Shown piece after piece: positions 6,621 through 32,081 of a stretch of DNA of 32,081 bases (position 1 is the first letter of the stretch; each line of letters starts with the position of its first letter). The DNA comes from a plasmid. The position numbers and the translations under genes are program-made. Under the pieces are notes generated by a model that worked only from the letters and a program-made list of their open reading frames with translations, was not told the origin of the DNA and searched no databases. The DNA is taken from sequence record NZ_CP063125.1; one strand, given 5' to 3'.

Positions 6621-6650
6621 AAAAGCCCGAATCAATCGGGCTTATTTATT
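6621..6650 (-). terminator. Rho-independent terminator after ssb that directly abuts the topB SD and ATG, so it could act as an attenuator
   Basis: On the minus strand the hairpin AGCCCGA-ttgat-TCGGGCT is followed by an 8-T run, and then immediately by AGGAAGacaagaATG of topB. Confidence 0.7.
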
Positions 6651-6653
6651 AAC

Positions 6654-7070: not shown

Positions 7071-7080
7071 TTTTTACTCC

Positions 7081-9831: not shown

Positions 9832-10864
9832 AAAGCAACTCCAATTTTTTCTCTGGCTCAAATAAAAGCTCTGTCATATAGGTATTTTTAAAGTAACAAA
9901 TCACATCTAGCGACGTACTTAATGTTTTTTGTATATAGGCTTCGCCTAATACTTTCCCTATATCAGACTGCATAACAAGCGTAGTTAAGCGCGGAATTGT
10001 TGCTCTTGTATCGTTAGCGTGCGTTGATGTAATACTTCCACTATGACCCGTATTAAGGGCTTCAAAATAGTTCCAGGTTTCATCGCCCCGTAACTCTGTT
10101 AAAAACAAGTGATCGGGTTTCATACGCATTGCAGACTTAATGAGTTCTTTAGGGCTTATACCGCCGGTTTTTTGGTAATCTGAATCAAAAAATAAATGCA
10201 AATGGTTTTTGTGATAAGGTAAAGATAGTTCGTGAACGTCTTCGAGCGTGATAATTCGGCGATCACGCGGGAACAAGTCTGCGTAAGTTTTCGCAAACGT
10301 TGTTTTACCTGAACCTGTACCACCGACCGCAATCACATTTAAATAATGTTCTGCGGCGATTTTGAAAAAACTGGCATAATCGCCCGTTTTTTGGCATTTT
10401 TTCATTTCTTGCATATAATCCGGAATTGAACCTTTTTGATAGGCTTCGGCTTCCTTGATTTTGCTAAATCGCCCGGAATTTTGATAATCCTCGAGAGTGA
10501 ATCGGCTTTTTGAGGGTTTTCGCAAGGTAAATGAAATCGTATTTGCCTCTGTTGCAGGGGCAGTGATAATCTGCCCCCGTTCGCCGTCCGGTAATACAAC
10601 CGACGCAATCGGATTGTTTGCGTCTAATGTATTATGTAAACCACTAAATACGGTAAGTGTATCAGCAAGGGCTTTCAAATTTTTGTAGTTTGTTTCCGGC
10701 GCGTCTTCGTATTCCCAACCGTTACCGCGTTCAAAAAAGATCGTTCCTCCTTGATTAACAGCTACCTCTGTTATTCCGTCCATATCCAAAAATTTCTGAA
10801 TACCGACTTTTTTTAGTAGAGAACGTGCAACGGTGGAGCGATCAATTTGTGATAATTCTTCCAT
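9824..10864 (-). CDS. virB11: VirB11-family secretion ATPase
   Basis: The Walker A motif GGTGSGKTT is present and the length is 346 aa. The gene lies directly upstream of the coupling-protein gene. Confidence 0.9.
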   Translation of the reverse strand: MEELSQIDRSTVARSLLKKVGIQKFLDMDGITEVAVNQGGTIFFERGNGWEYEDAPETNYKNLKALADTLTVFSGLHNTLDANNPIASVVLPDGERGQIITAPATEANTISFTLRKPSKSRFTLEDYQNSGRFSKIKEAEAYQKGSIPDYMQEMKKCQKTGDYASFFKIAAEHYLNVIAVGGTGSGKTTFAKTYADLFPRDRRIITLEDVHELSLPYHKNHLHLFFDSDYQKTGGISPKELIKSAMRMKPDHLFLTELRGDETWNYFEALNTGHSGSITSTHANDTRATIPRLTTLVMQSDIGKVLGEAYIQKTLSTSLDVICYFKNTYMTELLFEPEKKLELLYG

Positions 10865-13747: not shown

Positions 13748-14770
13748 TTAAGCTCCGGCTTTACCTTTTCCTATATTTTTTACTGCGTCTATGCGTTTTT
13801 TCCAACGCTTAGGCAAGCTGTCCGTACCTTCTCCTTTTTGCGCAGTAGAACGTCTTCCCTGAAAAAAATTTCTAGTTGCTCCATCACGTCTAAATAATCC
13901 GCCGGCGCCTCTTAATCCCATTCTCATTAAACCGGCAGCAGCACCAAACATACCTCCGGCAGTAAATGGACTAATCCCAACGCCTCCGGTTAGTGAAGAA
14001 ACTAAGGTAGGAATTTGATTAAGTGCAAAAACAATAATCAATGTTGCTATAAGAATGTTTAAATACGCTGCACCTGAACCTGCTTCTAAACGTGTTGTAA
14101 GAAACTTAGAAATCATTACAACCGCAGCAGAATAAAGCACGTTAAGTAAAATGTAGTTAAAACAAAGCCCCGTAAACGATGTGAACATATTTCTTGTTGA
14201 TGGAAATAAAGCAAATCCAACAAAAAGAATCCCTACACTTAAAAGAAGATTTACCATTATCTTTGCAAGTAATAAATTCACTGCAATAGCGATGGAAAAA
14301 ATTAGTTTAGCAAGTTCCAAAACGGCGATTTTCATACCTGCATTTAATACAGGGCTTAAACCGTCAGTAAGACCTAATTCATCCCATTTTTTATAAGCTG
14401 GCTCTAATTCTTTATCAAAAAGTGAAACTATCGTATCTATTGTATTTGTGCTGTTTTGTGAAGATGATGTGATCGCTTTTGCCAATTCATCGCCTGAATT
14501 TTGGACAAAAGGAATCACTGAATCTGTGTAATAACTTCCTCCGAAAGAAAATGCACCGACTAAAACAATTAAGGCAACTTGATTTAGGAGGTCATTTAAA
14601 ATGACCCCACCTTGATTGTTTATCTTCCATACAACATAAACAACATAAAGCCCAACACAAGCAACGTATAAAGGTTGTACTCCTTTTGCAAAGCTCGTTG
14701 CCATCGTGGCTGTTTCGCTGCTAAATGCCGTTACTATTTCCGTATAAATCGTTGAAACGAAAGAAGACAT
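13748..14770 (-). CDS. virB6: VirB6-family polytopic inner-membrane protein
   Basis: The protein is 340 aa with at least 5 hydrophobic helices. The start has an AAGGAG SD. The operon position fits. Confidence 0.7.
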   Translation of the reverse strand: MSSFVSTIYTEIVTAFSSETATMATSFAKGVQPLYVACVGLYVVYVVWKINNQGGVILNDLLNQVALIVLVGAFSFGGSYYTDSVIPFVQNSGDELAKAITSSSQNSTNTIDTIVSLFDKELEPAYKKWDELGLTDGLSPVLNAGMKIAVLELAKLIFSIAIAVNLLLAKIMVNLLLSVGILFVGFALFPSTRNMFTSFTGLCFNYILLNVLYSAAVVMISKFLTTRLEAGSGAAYLNILIATLIIVFALNQIPTLVSSLTGGVGISPFTAGGMFGAAAGLMRMGLRGAGGLFRRDGATRNFFQGRRSTAQKGEGTDSLPKRWKKRIDAVKNIGKGKAGA

Positions 14771-14787
14771 ATCTTCTCCTTAAATGA

Positions 14788-15471
14788 TTAGTAACCAAAT
14801 TTAGCCTTAAAATTTTCAGCTTTTCTGTTTTCTTCCTTCTTATAATCTTCCATTGCTTGACGATGTTGTAATTCAATGTTACGTTCAAAGCTCTTTTCAG
14901 CTTCGCTCATTGCAAGCTGTTCTTGATCGTAACGTAGTTTTTCAATCGCTAATTTATTCGCTACGTCTTGCTTTTGCGCCGGTGTTTGAGCGGAATCAGC
15001 CAAAACTTTTAAATTGTCTAAGTTTTTGATTCGGCTTTCGATTTTTTTCAGATATTTTTTAGAAAAATCTGTATAAGAAATGAGCTTGTCAAACTGCTTT
15101 TGAACTTCCGGATTATCAGATACTAAGCCATAAGATTCGCGTAATTGCGAAAGACTTTCGCCTGTTAAGCTAATTACATCGTTAGTTAAATCTGGGATAG
15201 AGTTTAGAAATGAATCCCCTCTTAACAAATCAGCGATTCCCATATTTCCCTCTAATCGACGTTTTGTGTCGTTTGCAAAATCGCGGTACTGCTGAATTTG
15301 TGTTTGTGCAGCCTGTAATTGTTGCTGTAACTGAGCAAGTTTTTGCATATCACCCGATACAATCGCAGAAAGTGTAGCACCATCAACGGTAGGGACTCCG
15401 CCTGCAAAAGATTGACTTGTAGTAAATGCCATTGTGAGTGCAATTAAGGTCGGTTTGATAACGTTTTTCAT
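14788..15471 (-). CDS. virB5: VirB5-family minor pilus/adhesin subunit
   Basis: The signal peptide is MKNVIKPTLIALTMAFTTSQSFA. The protein is 227 aa, helical and Q-rich. The start has a GGAG SD. The operon position fits. Confidence 0.65.
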   Translation of the reverse strand: MKNVIKPTLIALTMAFTTSQSFAGGVPTVDGATLSAIVSGDMQKLAQLQQQLQAAQTQIQQYRDFANDTKRRLEGNMGIADLLRGDSFLNSIPDLTNDVISLTGESLSQLRESYGLVSDNPEVQKQFDKLISYTDFSKKYLKKIESRIKNLDNLKVLADSAQTPAQKQDVANKLAIEKLRYDQEQLAMSEAEKSFERNIELQHRQAMEDYKKEENRKAENFKAKFGY

Positions 15472-19897: not shown

Positions 19898-20917
19898 TTT
19901 ATTTCTCCTGTGGTTAAAATGCAATATATTTTACACATATATATTGTATATTTTTAAGATTCGCGCCTTTATAGGAGCAAGATGGTGAGTATTCTAGCAA
20001 AAAACAAAGACGTTTTATAAATTTTGTAGGGTATAAATCAAATAATCTTGATCTTTAAAGTGAATAGGGGTAAGATCCTTGTAAATTCGCAACCGGTATC
20101 GATGATTTGCCGGTCTATTTACAGATACGTAGATAGAAAAAAAGCCCGCGAATGCGAGCTTTTTTCCTTGTGTTTGGAACGCTACCAACGTTTTAAACAC
20201 GGTGCAGTTAAGGAATTTGAAAGTGACTAACTGCGAAATTTCAATTTAATTATACTGATTTGTGTTTTATATGCAAGCACTTTCGGTTAAAAAGTATATT
20301 TTGCAGTCGCATTAAATTTATCGCGAAGTAAATTTAATAAAAATCACCAAAAGGCTTATGCCTCTCTTCAAAAATCTTAACTAGCACTTAATCATATTTT
20401 GATTGGGTGGTAGGAATAAGAGTCACTGGCAATCAATCTTATAATCTAATACCAGCGGAAACAGCAAATTAGATCGTTACGAGTGGTTATTTTATCGAGT
20501 GCAGCGCATTTATATTGGGTAACCTTGAATGCAGTGTCAGCGAGAAATAGCGGTTGAGAACGTGCTGTGCGGTTATATTGCCGTAATCTCAACAGGGCGA
20601 GGAAATATATCTGATCGCCTCCTAGATGAAAGCGGGTCGGCTCCGGGTATGCTAAATGCAACGAGCAAACGTTTTTTTAGGTACGCACTAAGTCTATAAC
20701 AGAAATGTATAGGCTTAGGGCGAGTATTACCTAAACTCTGCCTAGTCTTCCAAGTCTGCTGTGTGGACGATCCTTTTAATATAAAGATCATTTTAGTTGT
20801 CTAGTTATATACATTTCTTAAATTAAATAAAAAAAAGTTAGCTTATTAGAAGTTAAATGATGAAATGTATTGGATTTTAATTTTAAAAATAACTTGTTTT
20901 TTATTACTTTTTTACTT

Positions 20918-20947
20918 GTATTTAATCTTAACTTTGTTATACTTCCT
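20918..20947 (+). promoter_or_regulatory. Candidate sigma70 promoter of the par operon
   Basis: The sequence TTTTTTACTTGTAT-(16/17)-TATACT shares the TTTTTTACTTG(C/T)AT block with the accessory-gene promoters. It is followed by an AGGAGG SD and the parA ATG. Confidence 0.4.
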
Positions 20948-20991
20948 ATTAAATCAATGTTTGAACCTGTTCAATCTTAGGAGGATTTAAA

Positions 20992-21651: not shown

Positions 21652-22189
21652 GTTATTAGATTTGACTGAAAAGAAAATGAGCTTTATCAAAAAAGCGAAT
21701 AACGGCAATATCAAACCGCATAATCAAGTTGAATCAGTAAAAGAAACCAAAATTATCAAAGTAGAGGATTTTAAGCCGGCAAAACGTGGCAGACCTCGCA
21801 AAGGCGAGGAAAAAAATCCGGCTGATCGCGTTCAAATTACGCTATCAGTTGCGCCTGAACAAGCTGAATTTTTTAATGAATTGGTTGAAAAAACGGGTGA
21901 ACGATTGGGCGATCTTGTTTGGAAAAGCTTATTGTTTGCAAAATTTAAACCGCTTCCTGATGAATTTTTATTTGAATACTCAACACTTGTTTATAACAAG
22001 AAAAATGGTATTAGGGTTCAATTTCAACGCGTTTTAGATTCGCATTCGAGCTTGAAAAGCCTATCCGAAACTTATAAAGAGATGGGGTATAAAATTAAGC
22101 TGAAAGGCGTTGTGTTATTATATTTGCTTAATTATATGAAAAATTATCTCGGTGAAGATATTTCAAAATATCAAGCCTTTGCGGATTAA
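21644..22189 (+). CDS. Putative centromere-binding partition partner (RHH-like, a ParG/KorA analogue, 181 aa)
   Basis: The ATG at 21644 has a GGAGG SD and overlaps the parA stop. The basic AT-hook-like KRGRPRKG is followed by a ribbon-helix-helix-like segment RVQITLSVAPEQAEFFNELVEKTGERLGDLVWKSL. Confidence 0.5.
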   Translation: MAKLLDLTEKKMSFIKKANNGNIKPHNQVESVKETKIIKVEDFKPAKRGRPRKGEEKNPADRVQITLSVAPEQAEFFNELVEKTGERLGDLVWKSLLFAKFKPLPDEFLFEYSTLVYNKKNGIRVQFQRVLDSHSSLKSLSETYKEMGYKIKLKGVVLLYLLNYMKNYLGEDISKYQAFAD

Positions 22190-22213
22190 AGAACAAAGAA
22201 ATTGTAAACTGAA

Positions 22214-22256
22214 AAAGAGGGAGTAAATAGCGCAGTCTTTTACTCCCTCTTTTTTA
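22214..22256 (+). terminator. Rho-independent terminator of the par operon (copy A). An identical copy lies at 27412-27454
   Basis: The hairpin AAAGAGGGAGTAAA-loop-TTTACTCCCTCTTT is followed by a 6-T run. Confidence 0.7.
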
Positions 22257-22884
22257 GTTGAGCAACCGGAGCCGTCAGGCGTAGGGCGGTAGCCTTTGGG
22301 GCTTCCCCTCCCGTTGGTCGGGTCGGGCTATATTTTTCGGCTGCACGTCCGGCAAAAGCCGGTCTTTTCGCTCGAAAAACTCAACCAAATAAAACAGGCT
22401 GCTTTTTCGCGGCCCGTTTTATCTGTTTTCGCCCGTCCGGGTTACTATCCCTAAGCTGTTCCGTCCTCCGGACGGCTTAAAAGGGCTTCGCCCCTTAAGA
22501 ATCCCCATAAAGGGGTTAAAAACCCCTTTAAACCCCCCTTATTCTTTTCTTGCACTTTTACTCTCCTCTTCCCTCGATAACTTCTCTACGGGCTTTATTT
22601 TTCGTTAGGGTTCTGCAGGGCGTGAATGCTTGTGGGCTGTTTGATTTTGAGCGTGTTAAACGGTCATTTCTCCGCTCTGACATCGAGCAGGGTTCCGGGC
22701 AAATGCGGCGGCTTTGCCCTTCCATCAAGGGGGGGATTCTTGCAAATCCCCCCTTAATAATCCCCTTTCTTGTCGGAAAATTTAGCAATATATGCAAGTA
22801 AAAAAAGACTTTATTTAATAAATAAAAGTGCGAATATATTTAGATTTATTTTATAAATAATGCAAAAAATAATGTAAAAAATAC

Positions 22885-22913
22885 TTGCAATTAAAAGCAA
22901 AAAAGACTATAAT
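22885..22913 (+). promoter_or_regulatory. Sigma70 promoter for the J-domain gene. An identical copy at 28083-28111 drives the DUF2958-like gene
   Basis: The sequence is TTGCAA-17 nt-TATAAT with a T/A-rich upstream region. Confidence 0.6.
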
Positions 22914-22996
22914 TTATCTCAAGTTGAACGGGAAAACGTTCAGCGAGTTAGCCAAATGTGGCTAGTCTTTTCTTTATACCTAAATGAGGTAATCAA

Positions 22997-23518
22997 ATGA
23001 ATATCAATGAAGCTCTTAATATCTTAAATCTTTCCGGCTCTGTAACAAAAGCAGATATTGCAAAGGCTTATAAACGTCTTGCTGTAAAATATCACCCTGA
23101 CAAAAATCCGACTGGTGCGGAAATGATGAAAATCATCAATGCAGCGTATGAAATGCTTAAAAATCTTGATTTAGAGGAAATTAAACATACCGATCAAGAA
23201 AACGCATATAACTACGCGGACGTTTTGGAAGAAGTGATCCGTGAAGTTTTGAAAATGCACGGCGTGATTATTGAAATCTGCGGTAACTGGATTTGGCTTG
23301 CGGGGGAAACCCGTCAATATAAAGAGCAAATTAAGGCTTTAGGCTGCTTGTGGGCTTCTAAAAAGAAACAATGGTACTTTCGACCGACTGAACATAAAAG
23401 TTCACGTCATAAAGCGTGGGATATGGACAAAATCCGCTCTCACTATGGTTCAGAAGTCTTAAAAGCAAATTCTTCTCTTAATGACTTCAAAAAAACAAGT
23501 TTACCGGCAGCAGCTTAA
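22997..23518 (+). CDS. J-domain (DnaJ-like) protein, 173 aa
   Basis: The N-terminal J domain has the YKRLAVKYHPDKN motif containing HPD. The gene has its own promoter, leader and terminator. Confidence 0.7.
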   Translation: MNINEALNILNLSGSVTKADIAKAYKRLAVKYHPDKNPTGAEMMKIINAAYEMLKNLDLEEIKHTDQENAYNYADVLEEVIREVLKMHGVIIEICGNWIWLAGETRQYKEQIKALGCLWASKKKQWYFRPTEHKSSRHKAWDMDKIRSHYGSEVLKANSSLNDFKKTSLPAAA

Positions 23519-23528
23519 TTTTATTGAT

Positions 23529-23550
23529 AGCCCGTGAAAACGGGCTTATT
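23529..23550 (+). terminator. Terminator after the J-domain gene
   Basis: The hairpin is AGCCCGT-gaaa-ACGGGCT, followed by a T-rich stretch. Confidence 0.5.
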
Positions 23551-23656
23551 GGGGCAAAATATGTGTTTAAATTTTTTAGATTTAGAAAGTAATAAAAGAG
23601 CCAAGAAAAGCTTAAATTAAAGCATTAAATAATCTTTAAAATACTTGTTTTTTTAC

Positions 23657-23685
23657 TTGCATTTTTAGTTTTATTTTACTATAAT
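23657..23685 (+). promoter_or_regulatory. Sigma70 promoter with the conserved leader for the 136-aa gene
   Basis: The sequence is TTGCAT-17-TATAAT, preceded by TTTTTTAC. Confidence 0.6.
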
Positions 23686-23779
23686 GTTTCAAGTTAAACG
23701 GGAATTGTTACTAAAGCTTACCATTTAACAATATGCCAAAAGTGGCAAAACTAATCTCAAATCTTAAGAGGATTTTCTT

Positions 23780-24190
23780 ATGAGCCTAAAAATTGAAAGA
23801 GCTTTTAAAAAAGCGGGTATCCCTGAAATGCCAATAGTTCGCCGTCATATTCTAGTTAATCTTGCAAAAGTGGGGGCTGATTTAGATAAATTAACAAGTA
23901 CAGAAATTGGCTTTATTATTAAAGCATTGCATATTGGTTATCACAACGCAAAAGGCAGTCAAGAAGCTGATTATATGGCTGATATGGGCTGCGTTTGGAT
24001 TGGTGGCGAAGTGCAAAAATTGTTACCAATAGAAGCCCTAAAAAGTATTCGAATCATTAAGGAAAGCAAGCCGATTGAAAAGAAATCTATTCCCTCTGGG
24101 TGGAAATATGGCGTGCTTCCTTATGGGTGGGATCGCGTTGAGTATGAGCGAAAAACGCGCTACAAGTTAGATTTTACAGAAAGCTGTTAA
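23780..24190 (+). CDS. Hypothetical protein (136 aa)
   Basis: The start has an AAGAGGA SD and the gene has its own promoter and leader. I recognise no family. Confidence 0.55.
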   Translation: MSLKIERAFKKAGIPEMPIVRRHILVNLAKVGADLDKLTSTEIGFIIKALHIGYHNAKGSQEADYMADMGCVWIGGEVQKLLPIEALKSIRIIKESKPIEKKSIPSGWKYGVLPYGWDRVEYERKTRYKLDFTESC

Positions 24191-24195
24191 AGTGT

Positions 24196-24224
24196 TTGAC
24201 AGATAATTATTTGAGGCGTACTAT
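24196..24224 (+). promoter_or_regulatory. Near-consensus sigma70 promoter driving a short noncoding transcript
   Basis: The sequence is TTGACA-17 nt-TACTAT, immediately after the stop of the 136-aa gene. Confidence 0.55.
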
Positions 24225-24230
24225 CTTAAC

Positions 24231-24349
24231 AAGCAATCAGTATTTTTGCTTTTGCACCCTGTAAAGGGTGAGTGTTGAAACAAAAAAACATAGAACTATC
24301 TTTTTGATAGCAAGAAGACCGCCTTTTTAAGAATTAGGCGGTTTTTTTG
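24231..24349 (+). ncRNA. Candidate ~120-nt sRNA or transcription-attenuating leader
   Basis: A consensus promoter is followed about 110 nt later by a hairpin ACCGCC-loop-GGCGGT plus a 7-T run. There is an internal hairpin CACCCT-gtaa-AGGGTG. No ORF with an SD lies inside. The 88-aa gene starts 37 nt after the T-run. Confidence 0.4.
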
Positions 24350-24385
24350 TGTTTAATTTTAAAATTTTAATATAGGGGTGTAAAA

Positions 24386-24652
24386 ATGCAAAAAAGAAGT
24401 AGAAGTATTTCTTACCGGTTACAGAAAACAAGCAACTCAGCAAAAAGAGTTGAAATTCTAACCGAATGGGCTAATCAATGGAAATTTGAGCATATTGATT
24501 TAATTGAACGCCTTAAAGGCGGAATTGATAATCAAGATATGAATGAAATTCGGATTGCTCTCGGGCAGTTAAGAGCAGTTACGGAAAAAAAACACGAGGC
24601 TTTACATAATATATTTAGATTTCTTTTAGATGATAGAAATGATAAAAAATAG
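24386..24652 (+). CDS. Hypothetical protein (88 aa)
   Basis: An AGGGG SD lies 8 nt before the ATG. It lies downstream of the promoter/terminator leader unit. Confidence 0.45.
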   Translation: MQKRSRSISYRLQKTSNSAKRVEILTEWANQWKFEHIDLIERLKGGIDNQDMNEIRIALGQLRAVTEKKHEALHNIFRFLLDDRNDKK

Positions 24653-24684
24653 CAAAATTATTTAAAAATAAAGTGTTTTTTTAC

Positions 24685-24713
24685 TTGTATTTTTAGTTTT
24701 ATTTTACTATAAT
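24685..24713 (+). promoter_or_regulatory. Sigma70 promoter with the conserved leader for the 194-aa gene
   Basis: The sequence is TTGTAT-17-TATAAT, preceded by TTTTTTAC. It is almost identical to the 23657 promoter. Confidence 0.6.
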
Positions 24714-24807
24714 GTTTCAAGTTAAACGGGAATTGTTGCTAAATCTTACCGTTTAACAATATGCCAAAAGTGGCAAAACTAATCTTAAATCTTAAGAGGA
24801 TTTCAAA

Positions 24808-25392
24808 ATGACTAATCAAGACTTGAAAAGCTGTTTCTCTACGGCAGTAACCGAATTTTTTAACACTAACCCGCTAAATGCTTTTTGGAAAAAAGCACAA
24901 AATGAGCTTGATTTCTGCGCTCAAATTCAAGGCGTGAAAGTGAGTATTGAATTTATTGTAGGATTTAGTCGAGTTAAAGCCGTTGTTTCTGTTGGTAAAT
25001 ATAGAGAACGGGGTTATTTCTACCATAAAATTTCTTTTTCTCTTGATAAAAAATCATTCGCTAATGATTTTAAAAGATTGGCTTTTGATAAAGTGGAAAG
25101 TGCAATCAACGAAATTGTGTCATATAGAAATGAACGCAAACTAATCGAAGAAAATTTTGAACATAAATTACAAGCCTTTCGCCGTTATTTTCCCTTTGAA
25201 GTTAATTGGTCGGGACGACTTTCAGCAAGTGGGATCTCAATGCCTAAAAAGCTAAGAGCTATTGAGCTTTCGGGGGTGAATGGCGAAAAAGATTATTATT
25301 TAAAGCAGCTAACTTTTTCATCTGATGATACTGATTTTTTAATGAAAATTTGTGCTTGCGTTTCTGAATTGATTAAACAAGAAAACGCATAA
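24808..25392 (+). CDS. Hypothetical protein (194 aa)
   Basis: The start has an AAGAGGA SD and the gene has its own promoter and leader. I recognise no family. Confidence 0.55.
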   Translation: MTNQDLKSCFSTAVTEFFNTNPLNAFWKKAQNELDFCAQIQGVKVSIEFIVGFSRVKAVVSVGKYRERGYFYHKISFSLDKKSFANDFKRLAFDKVESAINEIVSYRNERKLIEENFEHKLQAFRRYFPFEVNWSGRLSASGISMPKKLRAIELSGVNGEKDYYLKQLTFSSDDTDFLMKICACVSELIKQENA

Positions 25393-25469
25393 ATAAGTGA
25401 ATTTAGCGGTTAAATATCTTGATTTAGCCGCTAGTTAGGCAAATAATATCAATATATTAAGGCTTAAAT

Positions 25470-25760
25470 ATGAATCTACTATCAATGACTAAAAATCAAA
25501 TTTTTAATTTACTTTACAATCTTTCAGGTTACTCTTTCAACGAAAAAGCATTTGTTGAGCTGCTCAACAAACGCGGATTTGAAGCCTCAACGGGCAAAAT
25601 CAGAAATTGGCGACGTGCAAACACTGATAATCAAAATTACCGCCCTGTGCCGGATTTTGTCTTAGAAGTGATTTTTGAAGAGTTCTTTAAAGCAAAAAGA
25701 GCGAACGACGGCGTTTTAACGTTACCATTCATTGAACCAGTGAAAAAAACGAAAAAATAG
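25470..25760 (+). CDS. Hypothetical small basic protein (96 aa)
   Basis: An AAGG SD lies 8 nt before the ATG. A TAATAT -10-like box and an inverted repeat TAGCGG..CCGCTA lie upstream. Confidence 0.45.
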   Translation: MNLLSMTKNQIFNLLYNLSGYSFNEKAFVELLNKRGFEASTGKIRNWRRANTDNQNYRPVPDFVLEVIFEEFFKAKRANDGVLTLPFIEPVKKTKK

Positions 25761-25793
25761 TTACCTTGTAACTGATAAATATACGGAGAAATT

Positions 25794-26165
25794 ATGTTTT
25801 ATTATGTTGCTTATGATTTGGACGGTATTAAACTTTTTGAAACAGATGAAGATGGGATTATTCACGAATTTAAAGATGAAAATCATTTTTATGATCCTGA
25901 AGATAAGCTTATCTATTCCCAGTATAGCGGAAGAAAAGTTCCTACTTCAAATTATCAATGGGAACCTGAAGAAGCCAAAAAAACACTATTAGAATTAGCA
26001 TTAGAAAACGCTCAAAATAACGGCGATGGGCGAGTTTTATTTCAGCCTAATCAAAGTAAGAAAGATTTGATTGAGGATATAGAACAGTTCCTAGCAGATA
26101 ATGATGATATTGACGCGGATTTAGTTGAAGTGTTGAATAATATCATCAAGGAGTTATTGGAATAA
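25794..26165 (+). CDS. Strongly acidic small protein (123 aa, about 30 Asp+Glu versus about 11 Lys+Arg). Candidate DNA-mimic / anti-restriction-like protein
   Basis: The start has a GGAG SD. A palindromic operator-like AGTTACCTTGTAACT lies just upstream. The net charge is roughly -19 with acidic residues clustered at the C-terminus. It sits in the putative leading region. Confidence 0.5.
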   Translation: MFYYVAYDLDGIKLFETDEDGIIHEFKDENHFYDPEDKLIYSQYSGRKVPTSNYQWEPEEAKKTLLELALENAQNNGDGRVLFQPNQSKKDLIEDIEQFLADNDDIDADLVEVLNNIIKELLE

Positions 26166-26170
26166 AAAAA

Positions 26171-26197
26171 ATACCTAGCAAAAGCTAGGTATTTTTA
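26171..26197 (+). terminator. Strong rho-independent terminator
   Basis: The hairpin is ATACCTAGC-aaaa-GCTAGGTAT, followed by a T-run. Confidence 0.7.
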
Positions 26198-26394
26198 CAA
26201 AACAAATATGCGGTATTTGCTCGATAATAGCTATCAAACGGAGCTATTATCATAAAAAAGCGGCCAAAATACAAGTATTTCAGCCGCTTTTTTATGATAA
26301 CGCGGATCGCTTCGCGTTCCGCTCAATTTGTTCGGAGGAATAATGAATAGAGAATTACTCTCAATAAATAAATTTTAGCAAAAGCCGCTTAAAA

Positions 26395-26964
26395 TTAAGT
26401 GGCTTTTGCTTCTTTTCTCAACCTGTATGCTGTTGAATTAGATACATTGTATTTTTGAGCTAATTTAGCGATAGAATAATTTTTTTTGACATCACGCCGA
26501 AATGCCTTTTTCTGCTCTTCTGTGATCGCTTTAGGTCTGCCCCCTTTTCCTGCTTCACCTTTAGCCAATCTTCCCTCCAAAGTGCGTTCTCTTATCCAGT
26601 TTCTTTCCATTTCCGCTAATGAAGCCATAAAAACGCACTTCATTTTATCAAAAGGATCGTTACGCCTTTCTGTATCAATCATTCCGTCAAGGCTTTTTAG
26701 GCAAATTCCTCGACTTTCTAAATCTTCATATAAGTTTAAAAATTGGCTTGTACTTCGTCCTAGCCTATCTAATTTAGTTACTACGATTGTATCACCCTCA
26801 CGGGCGAAAGCTAATAATTCATCAAGCCTTGCTCGATTCTTTGATTTTTCCCCCGAATTTTTACCCACAAATATTTTAAAGCAACCCGCTTTTTCAAGTT
26901 GCTTTACTTGTTCTTCATAGCTTTGACCGACTGTACTTACTCGCGCGAACCCTATTAACGCCAT
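26395..26964 (-). CDS. Serine recombinase of the resolvase/invertase family (189 aa)
   Basis: The N-terminal catalytic motif is ALIGFARVSTVGQS, with GDTIVVTKLDRLGRS and a C-terminal HTH (YSIAKLAQKYNVSNSTAYRL). No transposase is adjacent. Confidence 0.85.
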   Translation of the reverse strand: MALIGFARVSTVGQSYEEQVKQLEKAGCFKIFVGKNSGEKSKNRARLDELLAFAREGDTIVVTKLDRLGRSTSQFLNLYEDLESRGICLKSLDGMIDTERRNDPFDKMKCVFMASLAEMERNWIRERTLEGRLAKGEAGKGGRPKAITEEQKKAFRRDVKKNYSIAKLAQKYNVSNSTAYRLRKEAKAT

Positions 26965-26987
26965 AAACTCAAATAATCCTGTTTTCC

Positions 26988-27281
26988 TTAAAAATCTCTA
27001 TTTCTTAGAAAATGACCTAGACTGTTAATATAGCCATCTCCTCTATCTTCCAATGGCTCAAATTCCTCAAAATATTTCCCATTTTGGAGCTTGTATAAAT
27101 GGGCAAAGTATTTATCCCTTACATCAAAATGACCTAATACCCAAAATTCTTTTTCTTTTATTTGAGGATAGTTTAATAGTAGCAAATTAGAATCTTCTCT
27201 AAATTCGTCCCAGTTTTTTATAAGTGATCTAATAAAATCAAAATCTTTACTTTTTATAAAGATAGCTTCTTCTTGATTCAT
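26988..27281 (-). CDS. Hypothetical protein (97 aa) co-transcribed upstream of the resolvase
   Basis: An AGGAG SD lies 7 nt before the ATG. Its stop is 23 nt before the resolvase start. Confidence 0.5.
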   Translation of the reverse strand: MNQEEAIFIKSKDFDFIRSLIKNWDEFREDSNLLLLNYPQIKEKEFWVLGHFDVRDKYFAHLYKLQNGKYFEEFEPLEDRGDGYINSLGHFLRNRDF

Positions 27282-27400
27282 AAATCTTCTCCTATGTTTT
27301 CAAAACTCAACAGATTTGAATAAGATGATAATGCTATATTTAAAACTTAGCAAGTTTTAGTTTTGAATATAGTCAAAATAATTTATTAGTGTTTTGACTA
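27282..27400. promoter_or_regulatory. Candidate res/recombination site and promoter region of the resolvase operon
   Basis: Several short inverted repeats are present. One is TAGTCAAAA-13 nt-TTTTGACTA. Another is TAAAACTT-agc-AAGTTTTA. They lie directly upstream of the operon, in the arrangement typical of serine resolvases. Confidence 0.3.
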
Positions 27401-28191
27401 TGTAAACTGAAAAAGAGGGAGTAAATAGCGCAGTCTTTTACTCCCTCTTTTTTAGTTGAGCAACCGGAGCCGTCAGGCGTAGGGCGGTAGCCTTTGGGGC
27501 TTCCCCTCCCGTTGGTCGGGTCGGGCTATATTTTTCGGCTGCACGTCCGGCAAAAGCCGGTCTTTTCGCTCGAAAAACTCAACCAAATAAAACAGGCTGC
27601 TTTTTCGCGGCCCGTTTTATCTGTTTTCGCCCGTCCGGGTTACTATCCCTAAGCTGTTCCGTCCTCCGGACGGCTTAAAAGGGCTTCGCCCCTTAAGAAT
27701 CCCCATAAAGGGGTTAAAAACCCCTTTAAACCCCCCTTATTCTTTTCTTGCACTTTTACTCTCCTCTTCCCTCGATAACTTCTCTACGGGCTTTATTTTT
27801 CGTTAGGGTTCTGCAGGGCGTGAATGCTTGTGGGCTGTTTGATTTTGAGCGTGTTAAACGGTCATTTCTCCGCTCTGACATCGAGCAGGGTTCCGGGCAA
27901 ATGCGGCGGCTTTGCCCTTCCATCAAGGGGGGGATTCTTGCAAATCCCCCCTTAATAATCCCCTTTCTTGTCGGAAAATTTAGCAATATATGCAAGTAAA
28001 AAAAGACTTTATTTAATAAATAAAAGTGCGAATATATTTAGATTTATTTTATAAATAATGCAAAAAATAATGTAAAAAATACTTGCAATTAAAAGCAAAA
28101 AAGACTATAATTTATCTCAAGTTGAACGGGAAAACGTTCAGCGAGTTAGCCAAATGTGGCTAGTCTTTTCTTTATACCTAAATGAGGTAAT
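27401..28191. repeat. 791-bp direct repeat, copy B, identical to 22203-22993
   Basis: Base-for-base identity at a 5198-bp offset. It ends 2 nt before the ATG of a different downstream gene. Confidence 0.9.
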
Positions 28192-28193
28192 TT

Positions 28194-28628
28194 ATGTTCA
28201 ATGTAACAGCAATTCAAAAAGCTGAAAATCAGTTAAAAACTTATTCTCAATTTTTCCCTAAAGCTCAAGCGGACGTATTGAAATCACTTCTTGCAAGTGA
28301 GGAATCGTCTTATGTTTGCAATCTGATTGATTCAATTATTCAAAAAATTGAGTCAATGCCTAGTACTTATGAAACAGAAGGGCAAGGCGAAAATGCCTTT
28401 GCTATTCTTCACTATTTTGGGGGAGCGTGTGATTTTTACATCACAGAAAAAGATATTGAGAACGGGCAAAATCAAGCCTTTGGATTGGGCTATATTTGCT
28501 TTCCTGAACTGGGCTATATCAGCCTTCCCGAATTGTTCAAATCGCCTTATATTGAGCTTGATTTGCATTTTACCCCTCAACCCGTTGGGAAGTTAAGAAA
28601 AGAGCTTTTAAAAAGAGTGGGGCTTTAA
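28194..28628 (+). CDS. DUF2958-like protein (144 aa), a family typical of plasmid/ICE leading regions
   Basis: The central motif AFGLGYICFPELGYISLPEL fits the conserved DUF2958 core (AFGL..G...ELGY.SL.EL). This rests on my recollection of the family signature. Confidence 0.55.
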   Translation: MFNVTAIQKAENQLKTYSQFFPKAQADVLKSLLASEESSYVCNLIDSIIQKIESMPSTYETEGQGENAFAILHYFGGACDFYITEKDIENGQNQAFGLGYICFPELGYISLPELFKSPYIELDLHFTPQPVGKLRKELLKRVGL

Positions 28629-28633
28629 TTTAA

Positions 28634-28655
28634 AGAGGGGATACCCCCTCTTTTA
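28634..28655 (+). terminator. Terminator after the DUF2958-like gene
   Basis: The hairpin is AGAGGGG-atac-CCCCTCT, followed by TTTT. Confidence 0.6.
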
Positions 28656-28687
28656 ATAAAAAAATTAAAAAATAATTTGTTTTTTAC

Positions 28688-28716
28688 TTGCAATTTTATT
28701 TTTAATTTGCTATTAT
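28688..28716 (+). promoter_or_regulatory. Sigma70 promoter with the conserved leader for the 83-aa gene
   Basis: The sequence is TTGCAA-17-TATTAT, preceded by TTTTTTAC. Confidence 0.55.
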
Positions 28717-28811
28717 AGTCTCAAGTTAAGCGGGAATGGTTGTTAAATCTTACCGTTTAACGATATGCCAAAAGTGGCAAGTTAAAATAAAATCTTATGA
28801 GGATTTAAAAA

Positions 28812-29063
28812 ATGACATTGACTACAAAACAATATGCGGAAGCCTTAATTTTTTCCTTTGAGAAAAAGGAGAAAATGAAATCTCAAGCCTTTAAAGGGTA
28901 TGAATGGGCGGAAATTTTCTCTTATATAAAGTCTTATCAAACTTTTGTAAAATTGAATAGCTATCAGAAACTATTATTTGTGGTATTAGCTTATTTAAAG
29001 CCGACCCCGCAAAGTAATTTTGTTATTGAGCAGTTAAGCAAAAGAGAAATCTTGTTTATTTAG
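28812..29063 (+). CDS. Hypothetical protein (83 aa)
   Basis: The start has a TGAGGA SD and the gene has its own promoter, leader and terminator. Confidence 0.45.
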   Translation: MTLTTKQYAEALIFSFEKKEKMKSQAFKGYEWAEIFSYIKSYQTFVKLNSYQKLLFVVLAYLKPTPQSNFVIEQLSKREILFI

Positions 29064-29074
29064 TTAAATAATCA

Positions 29075-29099
29075 AAGCCCCCTAAAAGGGGGCTTTTTT
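29075..29099 (+). terminator. Rho-independent terminator
   Basis: The hairpin is AGCCCCC-taaaa-GGGGGCT, followed by a 6-T run. Confidence 0.7.
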
Positions 29100-29202
29100 A
29101 TTTCATAAAAAAAATTTAAAAATAAATGCCTTTTTGCTTGCATTTATTTTTAAGGCGTTTTAGGGCAAGGTTTAGATTTTTCTTCTCACTAGGTTTTGCT
29201 TG

Positions 29203-29270
29203 GCATATTTTGCCCCCATTGAGGGGGCAAAATATGCGAAAGGGGGCGGCATTATATGCCGCCCCCTTTC
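29203..29270. promoter_or_regulatory. Two abutting perfect 15-bp hairpins between convergent genes
   Basis: The first is GCATATTTTGCCCCC-attga-GGGGGCAAAATATGC. The second follows immediately: GAAAGGGGGCGGCAT-tat-ATGCCGCCCCCTTTC. Confidence 0.5.
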
Positions 29271-29286
29271 TATTGATTTGAGTAGT

Positions 29287-29610
29287 TTACTTTTTATCTT
29301 TAATAGCAAATTTCTTATAACTAGGACGCATAGATTCCAGTCTTTCTGTTACCATTTCTTTATGTATTCTGTTTGCGTATTCGTTAAGAGTTTTCCAGGC
29401 AATATAGGAAAACAATACACTTAAAATCAACTTGTTTACATATAATGGTAACTCAATAAAGATAATTTCTATTAAAACAGTACAACCTAAACTTGCAAAA
29501 AGTAGCTTTTTGTTGTTTCTCTTGTAGCAAATTACCCATAAAACGCAACTAAGACCTATGGCAATAATGTTTAAAAAATTTGCTAAAATAAATATGTAAA
29601 TACTTTGCAT
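29287..29610 (-). CDS. Small integral membrane protein (107 aa, about 3 TM helices). One possibility is an entry-exclusion-type protein
   Basis: The N-terminal half is hydrophobic. It is the last gene of the leader operon. Confidence 0.45.
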   Translation of the reverse strand: MQSIYIFILANFLNIIAIGLSCVLWVICYKRNNKKLLFASLGCTVLIEIIFIELPLYVNKLILSVLFSYIAWKTLNEYANRIHKEMVTERLESMRPSYKKFAIKDKK

Positions 29611-29621
29611 TTTACTTGCCT

Positions 29622-30386
29622 TTATTTTGATTTTAGCTCATTGTCAATGTTACTGATAATAATTTTTTGGATTTTATCAGCCTCTTTTGGCGCAATCTTT
29701 TTCACTTCTTCAAAGCCTTTATACAAGCCGACTTGATATGCCGTTTCTTTGTCTTCGGGTTGTTTTGATTTTGTGAGAATAAAGCCTGATACGGCAATGT
29801 TTATGATTGTTAGCCCAGTCAAAACCCATAATAATGGGGTTTTTGATTTGTTTAATACTTCTGATTTTGCTTGTGATTTTTGAGGTTGTACACTTTCAAA
29901 GGATTTTTTAATTTCCTCAATTTTCTTGTTAGAAAACGAATCAAGGCTTGTTATAACTTGATTATTTAAGTCTAAAACTGATTTTGAAAACGCCGTGTGC
30001 ATTTCTGTTCCTGCGTCATCTATTACTTCTAAGGCTTTTCCTATTCCGGCACTAAGTTCATCTAACTTTTCTTGTAATTTTGCGTCGATTACATCGCCTA
30101 TTTGTTTTGGGATTGCGTGTAATGATTCTGTAATTAAAGTAGAGTAGTACTCCATCACGTTTTTTTGCGACAGAATCACGGCGAGAATTGGATCATCTGT
30201 TGAGATTTTTATGTGTAGTTTAGCGAAGCAATCAATAATGAAATTTCTGATAAGCTGATCAAATTCTTCATCATTAAGTGATAAACGTTCTTTGGTTTTT
30301 TCTCGACTATCTTCAATTTTTGTTTGTAAATCGATTAAATCGGTTGTTTCCTGGATAACAGGTTCAATTTGATTTTCAAATTCCAT
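29622..30386 (-). CDS. Coiled-coil protein with a C-terminal membrane anchor (254 aa), in the TraM-like position of the leader operon
   Basis: The true start is ATG 30386 (MEFENQIEPV) with an AAGGA SD. The ORF-track N-terminal 61 aa are a read-through of the GC-rich repeat and are rejected. The TM helix is LLWVLTGLTIINIAVSGFIL. Confidence 0.55.
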   Translation of the reverse strand: MEFENQIEPVIQETTDLIDLQTKIEDSREKTKERLSLNDEEFDQLIRNFIIDCFAKLHIKISTDDPILAVILSQKNVMEYYSTLITESLHAIPKQIGDVIDAKLQEKLDELSAGIGKALEVIDDAGTEMHTAFSKSVLDLNNQVITSLDSFSNKKIEEIKKSFESVQPQKSQAKSEVLNKSKTPLLWVLTGLTIINIAVSGFILTKSKQPEDKETAYQVGLYKGFEEVKKIAPKEADKIQKIIISNIDNELKSK

Positions 30387-30402: not shown

Positions 30403-30560
30403 TTTGGGGCTTTCCCTCCCGTTGGTCGGGTCGGGCTATATTTTTCGGCTGCACGTCCGGCAAAGCCGGTCTTTTCGCTCGAAAAACTCAATCGAATAAA
30501 ACGGGCCACTAAAGCAGCCCGTTTTATTCGCTTTCGCCCATTCGGGTTACTATCCCTAAG
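30403..30560. repeat. Third, diverged partial copy (~158 bp) of the 5' core of the GC-rich repeat
   Basis: It aligns to 22294-22456 with scattered substitutions. One internal hairpin, AAAACGGGC..GCCCGTTTT, keeps its stem but has a different loop. Confidence 0.8.
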
Positions 30561-30592
30561 CCGGTTCAAAAAAGGGCGATAATATCGCCCTT
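30561..30592 (-). terminator. Rho-independent terminator after the TraL-like gene
   Basis: On the minus strand the hairpin AAAGGGCGATA-at-TATCGCCCTTT is followed by a T-run. Confidence 0.7.
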
Positions 30593-30596
30593 TTCA

Positions 30597-31337
30597 TTAT
30601 TCTGCGGTAGATTGTGTTTCGTTAAAGATAGGGTCTAATTGTTCGTAAATGTCGTTAAATACGCGTTTTAAACGGTTTTTAGCCATTAAGCCAAAATTAC
30701 TATCTTGAAGAGCTTCTACAAGGGTCAAACGTGATTTTGTCATTTTTTCTAAATCTGCGGTAAATGCGTCAGAATCACGATTTACGACTTTAATTACACC
30801 GGCTGTTTTATCTGCAACAACTTTTTTCTGCGTGTTGGAGATTTCAACATCACCCTGAAATTCGTTCAACCAAATAATCAATTTTACGTTTTTAGAATTT
30901 TTTACTAATTCATAAAGACTGGCTAAACCCTGTAAAGTATCACTTTGAGATTGTCCGCCGACAATTACAGTGTGAATAAAAACAGGTCTATCTAATTCAT
31001 CAAATAAATCAATAACGCCGTTATCTTCAATATATTTCATCATTGGAACAAATGTAGAAGCACCGTTATCAATAACGAATGTTTTATTTTCTTCATTTAC
31101 CATCAATTCAAAAATGTTATCAAATTTTGATTGGATAATTGCGCCATTTTTTAAAATTTCGATTGGATATGCGTTAATTCGTTCAAAACTTGCAAATGAT
31201 TTATTTACGGGGTCTGTATCTGCGCCGACTAAATCAACTTTTTTATAATCTAAAAAGTATTGTGCGAGTATTGAAGAAATAAATGATTTGCCTACGCCAC
31301 CTTTACCTTGTAATACAATGTTAATGCTATTATTCAT
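30597..31337 (-). CDS. ParA-like P-loop NTPase of the conjugative leader operon (TraL of RP4 / StbB of R388 type), 246 aa
   Basis: The Walker A motif GKGGVGKS is present. It is sandwiched between a small DNA-binding-type protein and a membrane coiled-coil protein next to the putative oriT. Confidence 0.7.
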   Translation of the reverse strand: MNNSINIVLQGKGGVGKSFISSILAQYFLDYKKVDLVGADTDPVNKSFASFERINAYPIEILKNGAIIQSKFDNIFELMVNEENKTFVIDNGASTFVPMMKYIEDNGVIDLFDELDRPVFIHTVIVGGQSQSDTLQGLASLYELVKNSKNVKLIIWLNEFQGDVEISNTQKKVVADKTAGVIKVVNRDSDAFTADLEKMTKSRLTLVEALQDSNFGLMAKNRLKRVFNDIYEQLDPIFNETQSTAE

Positions 31338-31349
31338 TTTAAATACACC

Positions 31350-31781
31350 TTATTTGTTTTGTTTTTCTTTTTCAGCTAATAAACGAGCAAATCTATCATC
31401 TACAGCTTGTTTATCGCTTCTATTATCGTGCAATTCTTTTTTCTCTTCTTGTTTATCAAGAATTGAAAAAAGATTGTCTTTTTTTACGACTTGAGCCGTT
31501 TTAGGTTGGGTTTCAATCAATTTTTCTGGTTGGTTATTTCCTCCTGTTTTTTTAGTTAATCTTTTCCTTGCTCTATAAAGCATATTTTTAAAGTATTTAA
31601 ATGTTACTTGTTTTTCATCATTAAAAAGATAATTGAAAATATCTTGTAAAGAATATCTTCTATTTACGCATTCATTTAAATCTTTTATGTGGGTATCAAT
31701 AGAGTATTGAATCTTGTTCGGGCGGTTTTCAATCTCTTTTTTGAGGGTGTTCAATTTTTCCGCTATGTAGTCGTTTTCCAT
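31350..31781 (-). CDS. Small basic protein (143 aa), a candidate oriT-binding accessory protein (TraK/StbA analogue)
   Basis: It is the first gene of the leader operon. Phased direct repeats lie immediately upstream. It has a basic RARKRLTKK segment. Confidence 0.4.
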   Translation of the reverse strand: MENDYIAEKLNTLKKEIENRPNKIQYSIDTHIKDLNECVNRRYSLQDIFNYLFNDEKQVTFKYFKNMLYRARKRLTKKTGGNNQPEKLIETQPKTAQVVKKDNLFSILDKQEEKKELHDNRSDKQAVDDRFARLLAEKEKQNK

Positions 31782-31854
31782 TTATTACCTCATTACGTTA
31801 GATTTTTGTAGTTTATTTCATAAAAAAAGTATAGTCAAACAAAATTTGCTTTCT

Positions 31855-31945
31855 TTTTGCTTTTTTTATGGTTTCTTATTGCTTCCATTATGCTTCTTTA
31901 TTGGTTTATTGTGCTTTTAATGTGCTTTCTTTATGGTTTCCATAT
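31855..31945. repeat. About 8 tandem imperfect 10-11-bp direct repeats (TTATGGTTTC-like) with phased T-tracts
   Basis: The units are TATGGTTTC, TTATTGCTTC, CATTATGCTTC, TTTATTGGTTT, ATTGTGCTTTT, AATGTGCTTTC, TTTATGGTTTCC and ATATGCTTTTT. Helical-repeat spacing implies intrinsically bent DNA or an array of binding sites upstream of the TraK-like gene. Confidence 0.55.
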
Positions 31946-32081
31946 GCTTTTTGTTGATTACTGTAATAATTTTACAGGCACGACAGCGATGTTTACAAAG
32001 TGCAAGCACCATTGTAAAATCGACCGTGCGAAAGGGGGAACCCTTTCAAACCCCAACGCCCTTACAGGCTAGTTTATCCCT

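Follow-up and report, generated by a model that had tools for sequence, protein, structure and literature searches.

Control elements in the leading region of conjugative plasmids set the speed of duplex formation and of establishment and anti-defence gene expression. Such elements have been characterised almost only in IncF and IncI plasmids (Frpo) and in IncN plasmids (CUP). Masai and Arai are said to have described the Frpo and single-strand initiation (ssi) elements as single-strand promoters in 1997. In plasmid F, 550-bp direct repeats with 89% identity stand directly upstream of ssb and another leading-region gene. Of these, the ssb-proximal one is known to act as a single-strand promoter and as a primer site (PMC11541004). 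According to two later papers, the CUP repeats of the IncN plasmids pKM101 and R46 are co-oriented direct repeats located 5' of establishment operons; each repeat carries a promoter, and recombination between copies leads to deletions and rearrangements (Delver and Belogurov, 1997, cited via PMC5371602 and PMC6289460). Single-strand origins (sso) serve to turn single strands into duplex DNA once rolling-circle replication or entry by conjugation has taken place (PMC4595007). Here, we analysed a 791-bp direct repeat with a structured GC-rich core that occurs twice on the 32,081-bp plasmid of sequence record NZ_CP063125.1. The whole of this sequence is called the window below.

Identity and composition of the repeat

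Positions 22203-22993 (copy A) and 27401-28191 (copy B) are identical at 791 of 791 nucleotides and lie in direct orientation. The identity ends abruptly at both edges, and the flanking sequences differ, with no extension. The pair had been reported in a first-pass annotation of the sequence, together with an order of terminator, GC-rich hairpin core, and AT-rich promoter and leader; the copies were confirmed base for base with the same exact ends, and the anatomy is present where it had been placed. The G+C content of the core (22253-22760) is 50-62%, compared with 36.7% for the whole window. Single-strand folding of the repeat exceeds that of shuffled sequences on both strands (z -7.5 and -7.1), and CCCC/GGGG hairpins are found in the core at 22504-22540. 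None of the three open reading frames (ORFs) of the core, which encode 52, 83, and 79 aa, has a Pfam match, in line with the earlier view that the core has no credible ORF. The gap to the start codon of the following gene is 3 nt for copy A (ATG at 22997, DnaJ-domain gene) and 2 nt for copy B (ATG at 28194, DUF2958-like gene); as had been proposed, the same expression signals precede two unrelated genes. Two kinds of additional copy had been overlooked. One is a partial copy of repeat positions 93-254 (89% identical) at 30403-30561, and the other comprises three shorter promoter/leader repeats at 23627-23775, 24655-24803, and 28659-28807. The repeat region differs between lineages by indels and replacements. 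The 791-bp repeat is a composite of four modules, designated a, b, c, and d (Table 1).

The window resembles metagenome assemblies, and an assembler can homogenise repeat copies. Two observations argue against such an artefact. The related contig L006 resolves its two copies separately (9207-9997 and 14405-15195); they differ only by the reverse-complemented 11-nt loop of the terminator hairpin, equivalent to window positions 22228-22238. In addition, the isolate plasmid pF1947 has analogous repeats with 99.6% identity. Apart from the loop flip in L006, no plasmid variant shows a difference between its copies A and B, and the variants differ from one another by 2-7%. The recent duplication or gene conversion proposed at first pass is borne out by this difference, and the best reading is that copy B arose by duplication in this lineage and that gene conversion keeps it identical to copy A. 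The loop flip itself amounts to a small inversion mediated by the hairpin.

Human metagenome assemblies commonly contain near-identical plasmids of 31-35 kb. Both repeats are present in every full-length version, separated by 4.6-7.2 kb in which the gene content varies. Two plasmids, pF1947 of Haemophilus influenzae biogroup aegyptius and pFJ6671 of Pasteurella multocida, share the backbone at 40-77% protein identity. Downstream of module b, the DnaJ-like gene begins (ATG) after 430-604 nt in the window, pF1947, pFJ6671, a Rodentibacter plasmid, and several metagenome lineages. Conservation across these upstream regions extends to one module c hairpin, to the promoter, and to the hairpins of the leader. 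This common order indicates that the 791-bp unit is the ancestral upstream region of the DnaJ-like gene. Reuse of the upstream region is also seen in the relatives: pF1947 433-1038 recurs at 6642-7156 (99.6% identity) before a gene for 192 aa, and pF1947 contains four copies of the promoter part, all of which end at a start codon. The situation in pFJ6671 is similar. In a more distant Klebsiella relative, GC-rich upstream repeats of unrelated sequence end at the start codons of the DnaJ-like gene, an antirestriction gene, and other genes; the antirestriction gene adjoins the DnaJ-like gene.

Structure and distribution of module b

Module b is a multi-hairpin element of approximately 160 nt that occurs about three times per plasmid throughout the plasmid family. 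The covariance model detected exactly three copies in the window and likewise three each in pFJ6671 and the Rodentibacter plasmid pTHUN1654_1; pF1947 has two full copies and one partial copy, and unrelated Pasteurellaceae plasmids gave none. One window copy lies in each 791-bp repeat, and the third stands alone between traL and a traM-like gene. The same intergenic site holds module b in pF1947 and pFJ6671. A search pattern was built on two invariant blocks of module b. Applied to one genome for each of 185,579 species, it matched only two related Pasteurellaceae plasmids or contigs; applied to metagenomes, it recovered 33 stretches with module b.

The five hairpins (P1-P5) are kept in all 36 distinct variants, and the stem sequences of P2, P3, and P4 are swapped between lineages. 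One P3 pair, for example, occurs as C-G, A-T, and T-A. The stems covary among homologues: in a 20-sequence alignment of P2, P3, and P4, 96.5% of the cells are paired, compared with 87% in shuffles and 32-52% with slid partners, and 45 double-change cells were observed against 12.9 expected. The covariation score was equalled by none of 500 shuffles. Of the two strands, the minus strand gives the more stable fold in all 36 variants when DNA parameters are used and in 34 of them when RNA parameters are used. Several blocks of module b are invariant, and some of these are unpaired in the model; they include ACTATCCCTAAGC, which lies outside the search pattern. Copies within one plasmid carry the same lineage-specific stem versions, such as the short P4 hairpin GCCGTAAACGGC in three of three copies of pFJ6671, which indicates concerted evolution. 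The flanks diverge exactly at the ends of the element.

No conserved promoter was found beside module b on either strand. Nor was any sigma-70-like promoter found that would transcribe the core in either direction. Promoters inside module b (e.g., TTGAGT...TAGAAT) were considered on both strands and rejected, as they are not conserved between lineages. In the 791-bp unit, a terminator lies directly upstream of module b on the plus strand. Rfam returned 0 matches in the whole window at gathering thresholds; permissive thresholds yielded only generic hairpin matches far below the cut-offs, with no RNAI. The suggestion that the core is a known structured non-coding RNA gained no support from these searches.

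The window is a complete circular conjugative plasmid, and the related contig L014 reads across the junction 32081|1. It encodes a NikA-like protein, a 1286-aa relaxase, topoisomerase III, SSB (a protein that binds single-stranded DNA), TrbM, a VirB-type secretion system, ParA, a resolvase, and traK-, traL-, and traM-like genes. The order is traK-traL-traM-like genes, origin of transfer (oriT), nikA-like gene, and relaxase gene. The traK-, traL-, and traM-like genes read away from oriT, opposite to the relaxase gene, which is an IncP-like layout. The relaxase gene is typically the last to enter the recipient, and early leading-region genes typically point towards oriT (PMC11541004). The plus-strand genes behind both repeats point towards oriT. 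By analogy, the traK side would enter first, the minus strand would be the transferred strand, and the leading region would extend from 31.8 kb down to 22 kb. The module b copies are 1.4, 4.4, and 9.6 kb from oriT, and the long repeats are 4-10 kb from it, on the traK side. Within any plasmid all module b copies are co-oriented, and the same holds for multi-copy metagenome contigs. Their orientation relative to neighbouring genes varies (sense to the DnaJ-like gene and repA, antisense to traM) and is constant on the plasmid strand.

Possible roles of the repeat and its core

We tentatively favour, at somewhat less than an even chance, a duplicated control region of establishment genes whose core is a priming signal of the ssi or sso type on the transferred strand. 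The observations support a duplicated, CUP-like control region: the 791-bp unit would be a conserved control region of establishment genes that normally precedes the DnaJ-like gene and was copied before the DUF2958-like gene. Its 3' third would provide an ordinary double-strand promoter and a structured mRNA leader, giving both genes the same expression signals. Folded on the incoming minus strand, module b would serve as a site of single-strand initiation, from which primed synthesis would proceed across module c, the promoter, and the gene, towards oriT and the already-entered 5' end. The promoter and gene just downstream would then become duplex first and could be expressed soon after entry. 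Among the three ideas put forward at first pass (an RNA-primed replication origin, an ssi priming signal, and a large structured RNA), the priming signal is the best supported, owing to the covarying hairpins, the fixed orientation of several copies in the putative leading region, and the better fold on the putative transferred strand; the priming function is a putative one. Module b is a new, family-specific structured element within a known kind of arrangement, namely conserved upstream repeats in the leading region of a plasmid.

The locus shares features with each of the described systems. As with the CUP repeats, copies reach gene starts: the two co-oriented 791-bp copies and the three shorter copies do so in the window, and the same habit is seen in pF1947. 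In contrast to the CUP repeats, to which it has no homology (blastn against the 72,556 plasmids of PLSDB gave no IncN match), the window unit is longer and has a 500-nt structured GC-rich core and a 160-nt element that is conserved separately. The Pfam, NCBIfam, and PHROG scans, none of them a dedicated ArdK search, yielded no ArdK-like protein, and no operator of that kind was identified. The likeness to the Frpo elements of F and ColIb-P9 consists of long direct repeats upstream of leading-region genes that point towards oriT, with the strand assigned by analogy, and of comparable single-strand folding (z -7.0 for F and -7.5 for the window repeat). A difference is that the window promoter has no conserved pairing partner. 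A long hairpin of the Frpo type that includes the promoter was considered and is neither predicted nor conserved.

Module b also resembles the sso elements of rolling-circle plasmids and ICEBs1 (PMC4595007) in being non-coding, of the 150-200 nt class, orientation-specific, and multi-hairpin, with conserved unpaired motifs. It differs from them in its three copies per replicon and its putative function, and the known sso examples are Gram-positive elements likened here by description only. With the G4-type ssi (the phage G4 origin and the IncFII G-site), the repeat shares a hairpin cluster on the strand that is due to be copied. On the putative transferred strand of the window, the apex GCGAAGC may be compared with GCGAAAGC at the apex of G4 stem-loop I, and the GTAGGGCGG of the plus-strand 39-mer in module a resembles the G4 primer start GUAGGGACGG. 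Over the plasmid as a whole, the minus strand shows no significant excess of GCGAAGC/GCGAAAGC mini-hairpins.

Several points weigh against a priming signal. The F leading region gave no match to the repeat at E<0.01 with 7-nt words, and no IncF or IncI plasmid was matched in PLSDB. The F element is one hairpin of approximately 330 nt that contains -35 and -10 boxes, whereas the window repeat forms many short hairpins. For the G4-type ssi, the best local alignment scores 14 compared with 11.8 +/- 1.6 for shuffles, and the GTAGGG-CGG resemblance is not significant. The transferred strand was assigned by analogy with IncP and IncI plasmids and not from a mapped nick. Co-orientation of the module b copies is inherited with synteny and is hence weak independent evidence. 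Some lineages have lost the 5' part of module c, and a large share of the GC-rich core may hence not be needed. In the small plasmid pJR2, module a is reversed relative to the putative nick motif and does not fit the same model. In the RepA-bearing relatives of the pF1947 type, a module b copy lies approximately 200 nt upstream of repA in sense orientation, a position that would also fit a role in replication control or at the RNA level.

That last position would suit a possible, though unlikely, action of module b as RNA, with or without module c, as a structured 5' leader, an intercistronic traL-traM element, or a sense/antisense pair. In the pairing version, a traL-traM transcript with the reverse complement of module b would pair with leaders that contain module b, on repA or establishment-gene transcripts, and link transfer-gene expression to the establishment genes. 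Covarying stems suit RNA as well as DNA, and the minus-strand version is also the more stable one as RNA. The third copy lies inside the operon and ends 16 nt before the traM-like start codon, and the copies of one plasmid are near-identical while plasmids diverge, as pairing in trans would need. However, module b has neither an adjoining conserved promoter nor conserved flanks, and within the 791-bp repeat a strong terminator stands just upstream on the plus strand and the only good promoter is approximately 430 nt downstream. The absence of an Rfam match also counts against an RNA role, and the variable orientation to neighbouring genes argues against a single cis-acting mRNA function. It is unlikely, too, that only the promoter and leader matter, with the core serving as a passive spacer or as an insulator made of stacked terminators that protects strong establishment promoters against read-through, and the repeats being a product of recombination. 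Terminator-like hairpins are three times as frequent as in shuffles across 21900-29300, P4 resembles a bidirectional terminator in several lineages, and part of module c is variable or lost. A mere spacer would not account for the invariant unpaired blocks of module b, ACTATCCCTAAGC among them, which are kept across lineages that differ by 33%, or for the maintenance of three co-oriented copies per plasmid; an insulator inside the traL-traM operon would do harm. Such a passive role is compatible with the variable part of module c and not with module b.

The absence of a replication initiator (Rep) gene raises the question of whether the GC-rich core is a host-initiated vegetative origin, RNA-primed or primosome-dependent, or a lagging-strand origin for relaxase-driven rolling-circle replication from oriT. 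Either is quite unlikely. The first-pass annotation had seen no Rep in the window, and its observation holds: no Rep family was found in Pfam, NCBIfam, and PHROG scans of the main window ORFs, the RepA of the relatives gave no tblastn match in the window, and a PDB sequence search with the relaxase found no primase. Both pF1947 and pFJ6671 encode an IncFII-type RepA between the type IV secretion system operon and the establishment genes, where the window has parA and a 186-aa gene. No iterons or DnaA-box cluster of a classical vegetative origin were found outside oriT, and DnaA boxes occur at chance level. These results, the link of module b to repA in the relatives, and the replication of integrative conjugative elements (ICEs) from oriT by relaxase with an sso (PMC4595007) would suit an origin. 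On the other hand, the RepA-bearing relatives keep the same elements, which are thus not a substitute for RepA, and two or three identical direct-repeat origins would be unusual on one replicon. A novel Rep is possible among the small proteins of no known family; the lineage-specific genes all encode proteins of 186 aa or fewer. ColE1-type RNA-primed origins are known in small Pasteurellaceae plasmids, and the window is like them in its apparently Rep-free replication and its structured non-coding region of approximately 600 nt. It differs in that Rfam detects no RNAI/RNAII, no promoter leads into the core, and the element is also present in RepA-encoding relatives; the proposed ColE1-like origin is accordingly left without support. 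GC skew tracks the coding strand only. The repeat is very improbable as a small mobile element, whether a miniature inverted-repeat transposable element (MITE), an insertion sequence (IS) fragment, or a gene cassette. Its left end coincides, at TGTAAAC, with the left end of a segment shared with small plasmids, and a known 1.8-kb deletion in one of these, pJD4, is delimited by two direct copies of the module a 39-mer (PMC10438826). Yet there are no terminal inverted repeats, target-site duplications, or transposase, and no chromosomal copies in the 185,579 genomes; positions are syntenic across the plasmid family, and no non-syntenic unit flanked by target duplications was seen. Of the mobile promoter cassette envisaged at first pass, what stands is the reuse of the upstream region before different genes; mobility does not, as inverted repeats, target duplications, and copies dispersed outside the family are lacking.

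Remaining modules, plasmid context and wider meaning

The hairpin of module a is predicted to be a bidirectional intrinsic terminator. Its stem covaries among pJR2, a Glaesserella plasmid, and pJD4, while the adjoining 39-mer stays conserved. The 39-nt motif is 95% identical in 32 gonococcal beta-lactamase plasmids and one Actinobacillus pleuropneumoniae plasmid. Repeat positions 1-93 (module a, 22203-22295) are 82% identical to pJR2 and the Glaesserella plasmid and are the sole portion of the 791 nt with PLSDB matches, all of them in Pasteurellaceae and Neisseria. Module a is missing from the corresponding site in the relatives of the window plasmid. In pJD4 (L003), direct copies of the 39-mer at 173-210 and 2001-2039 are 1828 bp apart. 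This spacing fits the 1826-bp deletion (repB, ori2, and ori3) that separates the African from the Asian beta-lactamase plasmid (PMC10438826). In pJR2, the motif lies approximately 45 nt from an inverted repeat followed by TATCCTGC, beside a ribbon-helix-helix-like mob gene.

The 5' part of module c is variable between lineages and deleted in some, and the 3' part holds a conserved hairpin with the arms GGGGGGGATT and AATCCCCCC around CTTGCA. The loop TTGCA and the flanks CCAT.AAGG and CCTTAATAATCC of this hairpin are conserved; the inner stem is replaced in pF1947-type plasmids. Another module c hairpin (22476-22499; 27674-27697 in copy B) has the apex GCGAAGC on the minus strand. The same apex is found on the equivalent antisense strand in pF1947 and pFJ6671, where by alignment it sits in a hairpin with a different lower stem, and this hairpin is missing from Rodentibacter-type lineages.

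Both leader hairpins of module d are retained, with different sequences, in pF1947-type plasmids. The promoter/leader family has six sites in the window (20870-20991, 22860-22996, 23640-23779, 24670-24807, 28058-28193, and 28680-28811), with the consensus T-run, ACTTGyA, 17 nt, TATAAT, and CAAGTTrAACGGGAA. The six genes behind these sites are parA, for which only the upstream part matches, the DnaJ-like gene, p136, p194, the DUF2958-like gene, and p83. The shared family suggests one regulon, and the shared motif TTTTTTTACTTGCA is a candidate operator.

Table 1. Coordinates of the repeat, its modules, and neighbouring features in the window
Feature	Position	Strand	Description and basis
Repeat copy A	22203-22993	+	precedes DnaJ-domain gene; exact match to copy B
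Repeat copy B	27401-28191	+	precedes DUF2958-like gene; exact match to copy A
Module a, part 1	22207-22259 (copy B 27405-27457)	.	hairpin with 21-bp stem between A-run and T-run; sequence and folds
Module a, part 2	22257-22295 (copy B 27455-27493)	+	39-nt motif AACCGGAGCCGTCAGGCGTAGGGCGGTAGCC
Module b, copy 1	22295-22456	-	hairpins P1-P5; covariance model 141 bits; minus-strand DNA fold z -4.6
Module b, copy 2	27493-27654	-	within repeat copy B; covariance model match
Module b, copy 3	30403-30561	-	stand-alone, fills traL - traM-like intergenic space; covariance model 148 bits
Module c	22457-22760 (copy B 27655-27958)	.	GC-rich hairpin cluster; eight-lineage alignment
Conserved module c hairpin	22727-22755 (copy B 27925-27953)	.	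AAGGGGGGGATT-CTTGCA-AATCCCCCCTT, then AATAATCC
Module d	22761-22993		AT-rich tract with promoter, then leader
Promoter TTGCAA-17-TATAAT	22885-22913 (copy B 28083-28111)	+	10/12 match to sigma-70 consensus; conserved in relatives
5' leader, two hairpins and ribosome-binding site	22914-22996 (copy B 28112-28193)	+	alignment
Short promoter/leader repeat	23627-23775 (sisters 24655-24803, 28659-28807)	+	precedes 136-aa gene
DnaJ-domain gene, 173 aa	22997-23518	+	Pfam DnaJ 1e-13
Serine resolvase gene	26395-26964	-	between repeat copies; Pfam Resolvase 5e-33
DUF2958-like gene, 144 aa	28194-28628	+	tblastn match to proteins annotated DUF2958; PHROG 5203
traM-like gene	29622-30386		part of IncP-like leader operon
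traL	30597-31337	-	NCBIfam TraL 5e-53; homologues in relatives
traK-like gene	31350-31781		part of IncP-like leader operon
oriT region	31782-32081, on to ~70 across junction	.	core shared with relatives, enterobacterial and Arsenophonus plasmids

Other variants of the plasmid carry five to seven extra minus-strand genes (61-94 aa) between a 97-aa gene and copy B, a variable spot at the repeat boundary (L004 14620-16309, L008 4418-6108, and L014 4419-6109). In the Klebsiella relative pHNBF16 (L066), a 98-nt GC-rich segment upstream of the DnaJ-like gene (1596-1693) has a perfect inverted copy at 3125-3222, which is 1.4 kb away and upstream of an XRE-family gene.

Between the traK-like and nikA-like genes, positions 31845-31952 hold an array (TGCTTTC...ATGGTTTC) whose periodicity is 11/22/33 nt, and both pF1947 and pFJ6671 have similar arrays in their oriT regions. 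The window array probably serves to bind relaxosome accessory proteins rather than as a set of iterons. The oriT core AGGCACGACAGCGATGT..GTGCGAAAGGGGGAACCC is located at L014 10802-10881 (window ~31974-32053) and matches, at 77-85% identity, sites that carry no annotation in plasmids of Arsenophonus, Klebsiella, Salmonella, Serratia, and Edwardsiella. These matches beyond the Pasteurellaceae indicate that the family is much wider than that group; pHNBF16 carries a relaxase with an LPD7 domain. An oriT-like sequence within the repeat was considered and rejected. The alignment of the GGGG/CCCC tract (22504-22540) with the core CGAAAGGGGGAACCCTTTCAAACCCC scores no better than shuffles, and the 8-mer TATCCCTA, common to the repeat and oriT, is not conserved in the oriT of the relatives.

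Recombination between the identical repeats is predicted to yield a 5.2-kb deletion or circle and a 26.9-kb remainder, and it could explain the variable gene content between the copies across metagenomes. Contigs of approximately 26.4 kb were considered as deletion products and rejected. They start in the last ~150 nt of the repeat and are ~0.5 kb short of 26.9 kb, and this start position and shortfall make them look like assembly breaks at the repeat.

A complete plasmid that lacks Rep poses the question of its mode of replication. Excised ICEs such as ICEBs1 replicate from oriT by means of the relaxase and need an sso (PMC4595007). Maintenance of the window plasmid in this manner, by relaxase-driven rolling-circle replication from oriT with the three module b copies as single-strand origins in both vegetative and post-conjugative replication, is very unlikely; if true, this would be a Rep-less conjugative plasmid on the Gram-negative side, and its sso would form a new class. 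Compared with Frpo and CUP, the window element is a sequence-unrelated and structurally different solution. It belongs to a plasmid family that is common in human-associated Pasteurellaceae and is related to enterobacterial and Arsenophonus plasmids at the level of oriT and relaxase. Module b is a compact, well-delimited 160-nt motif absent from Rfam, and its putative priming or regulatory function is directly testable.

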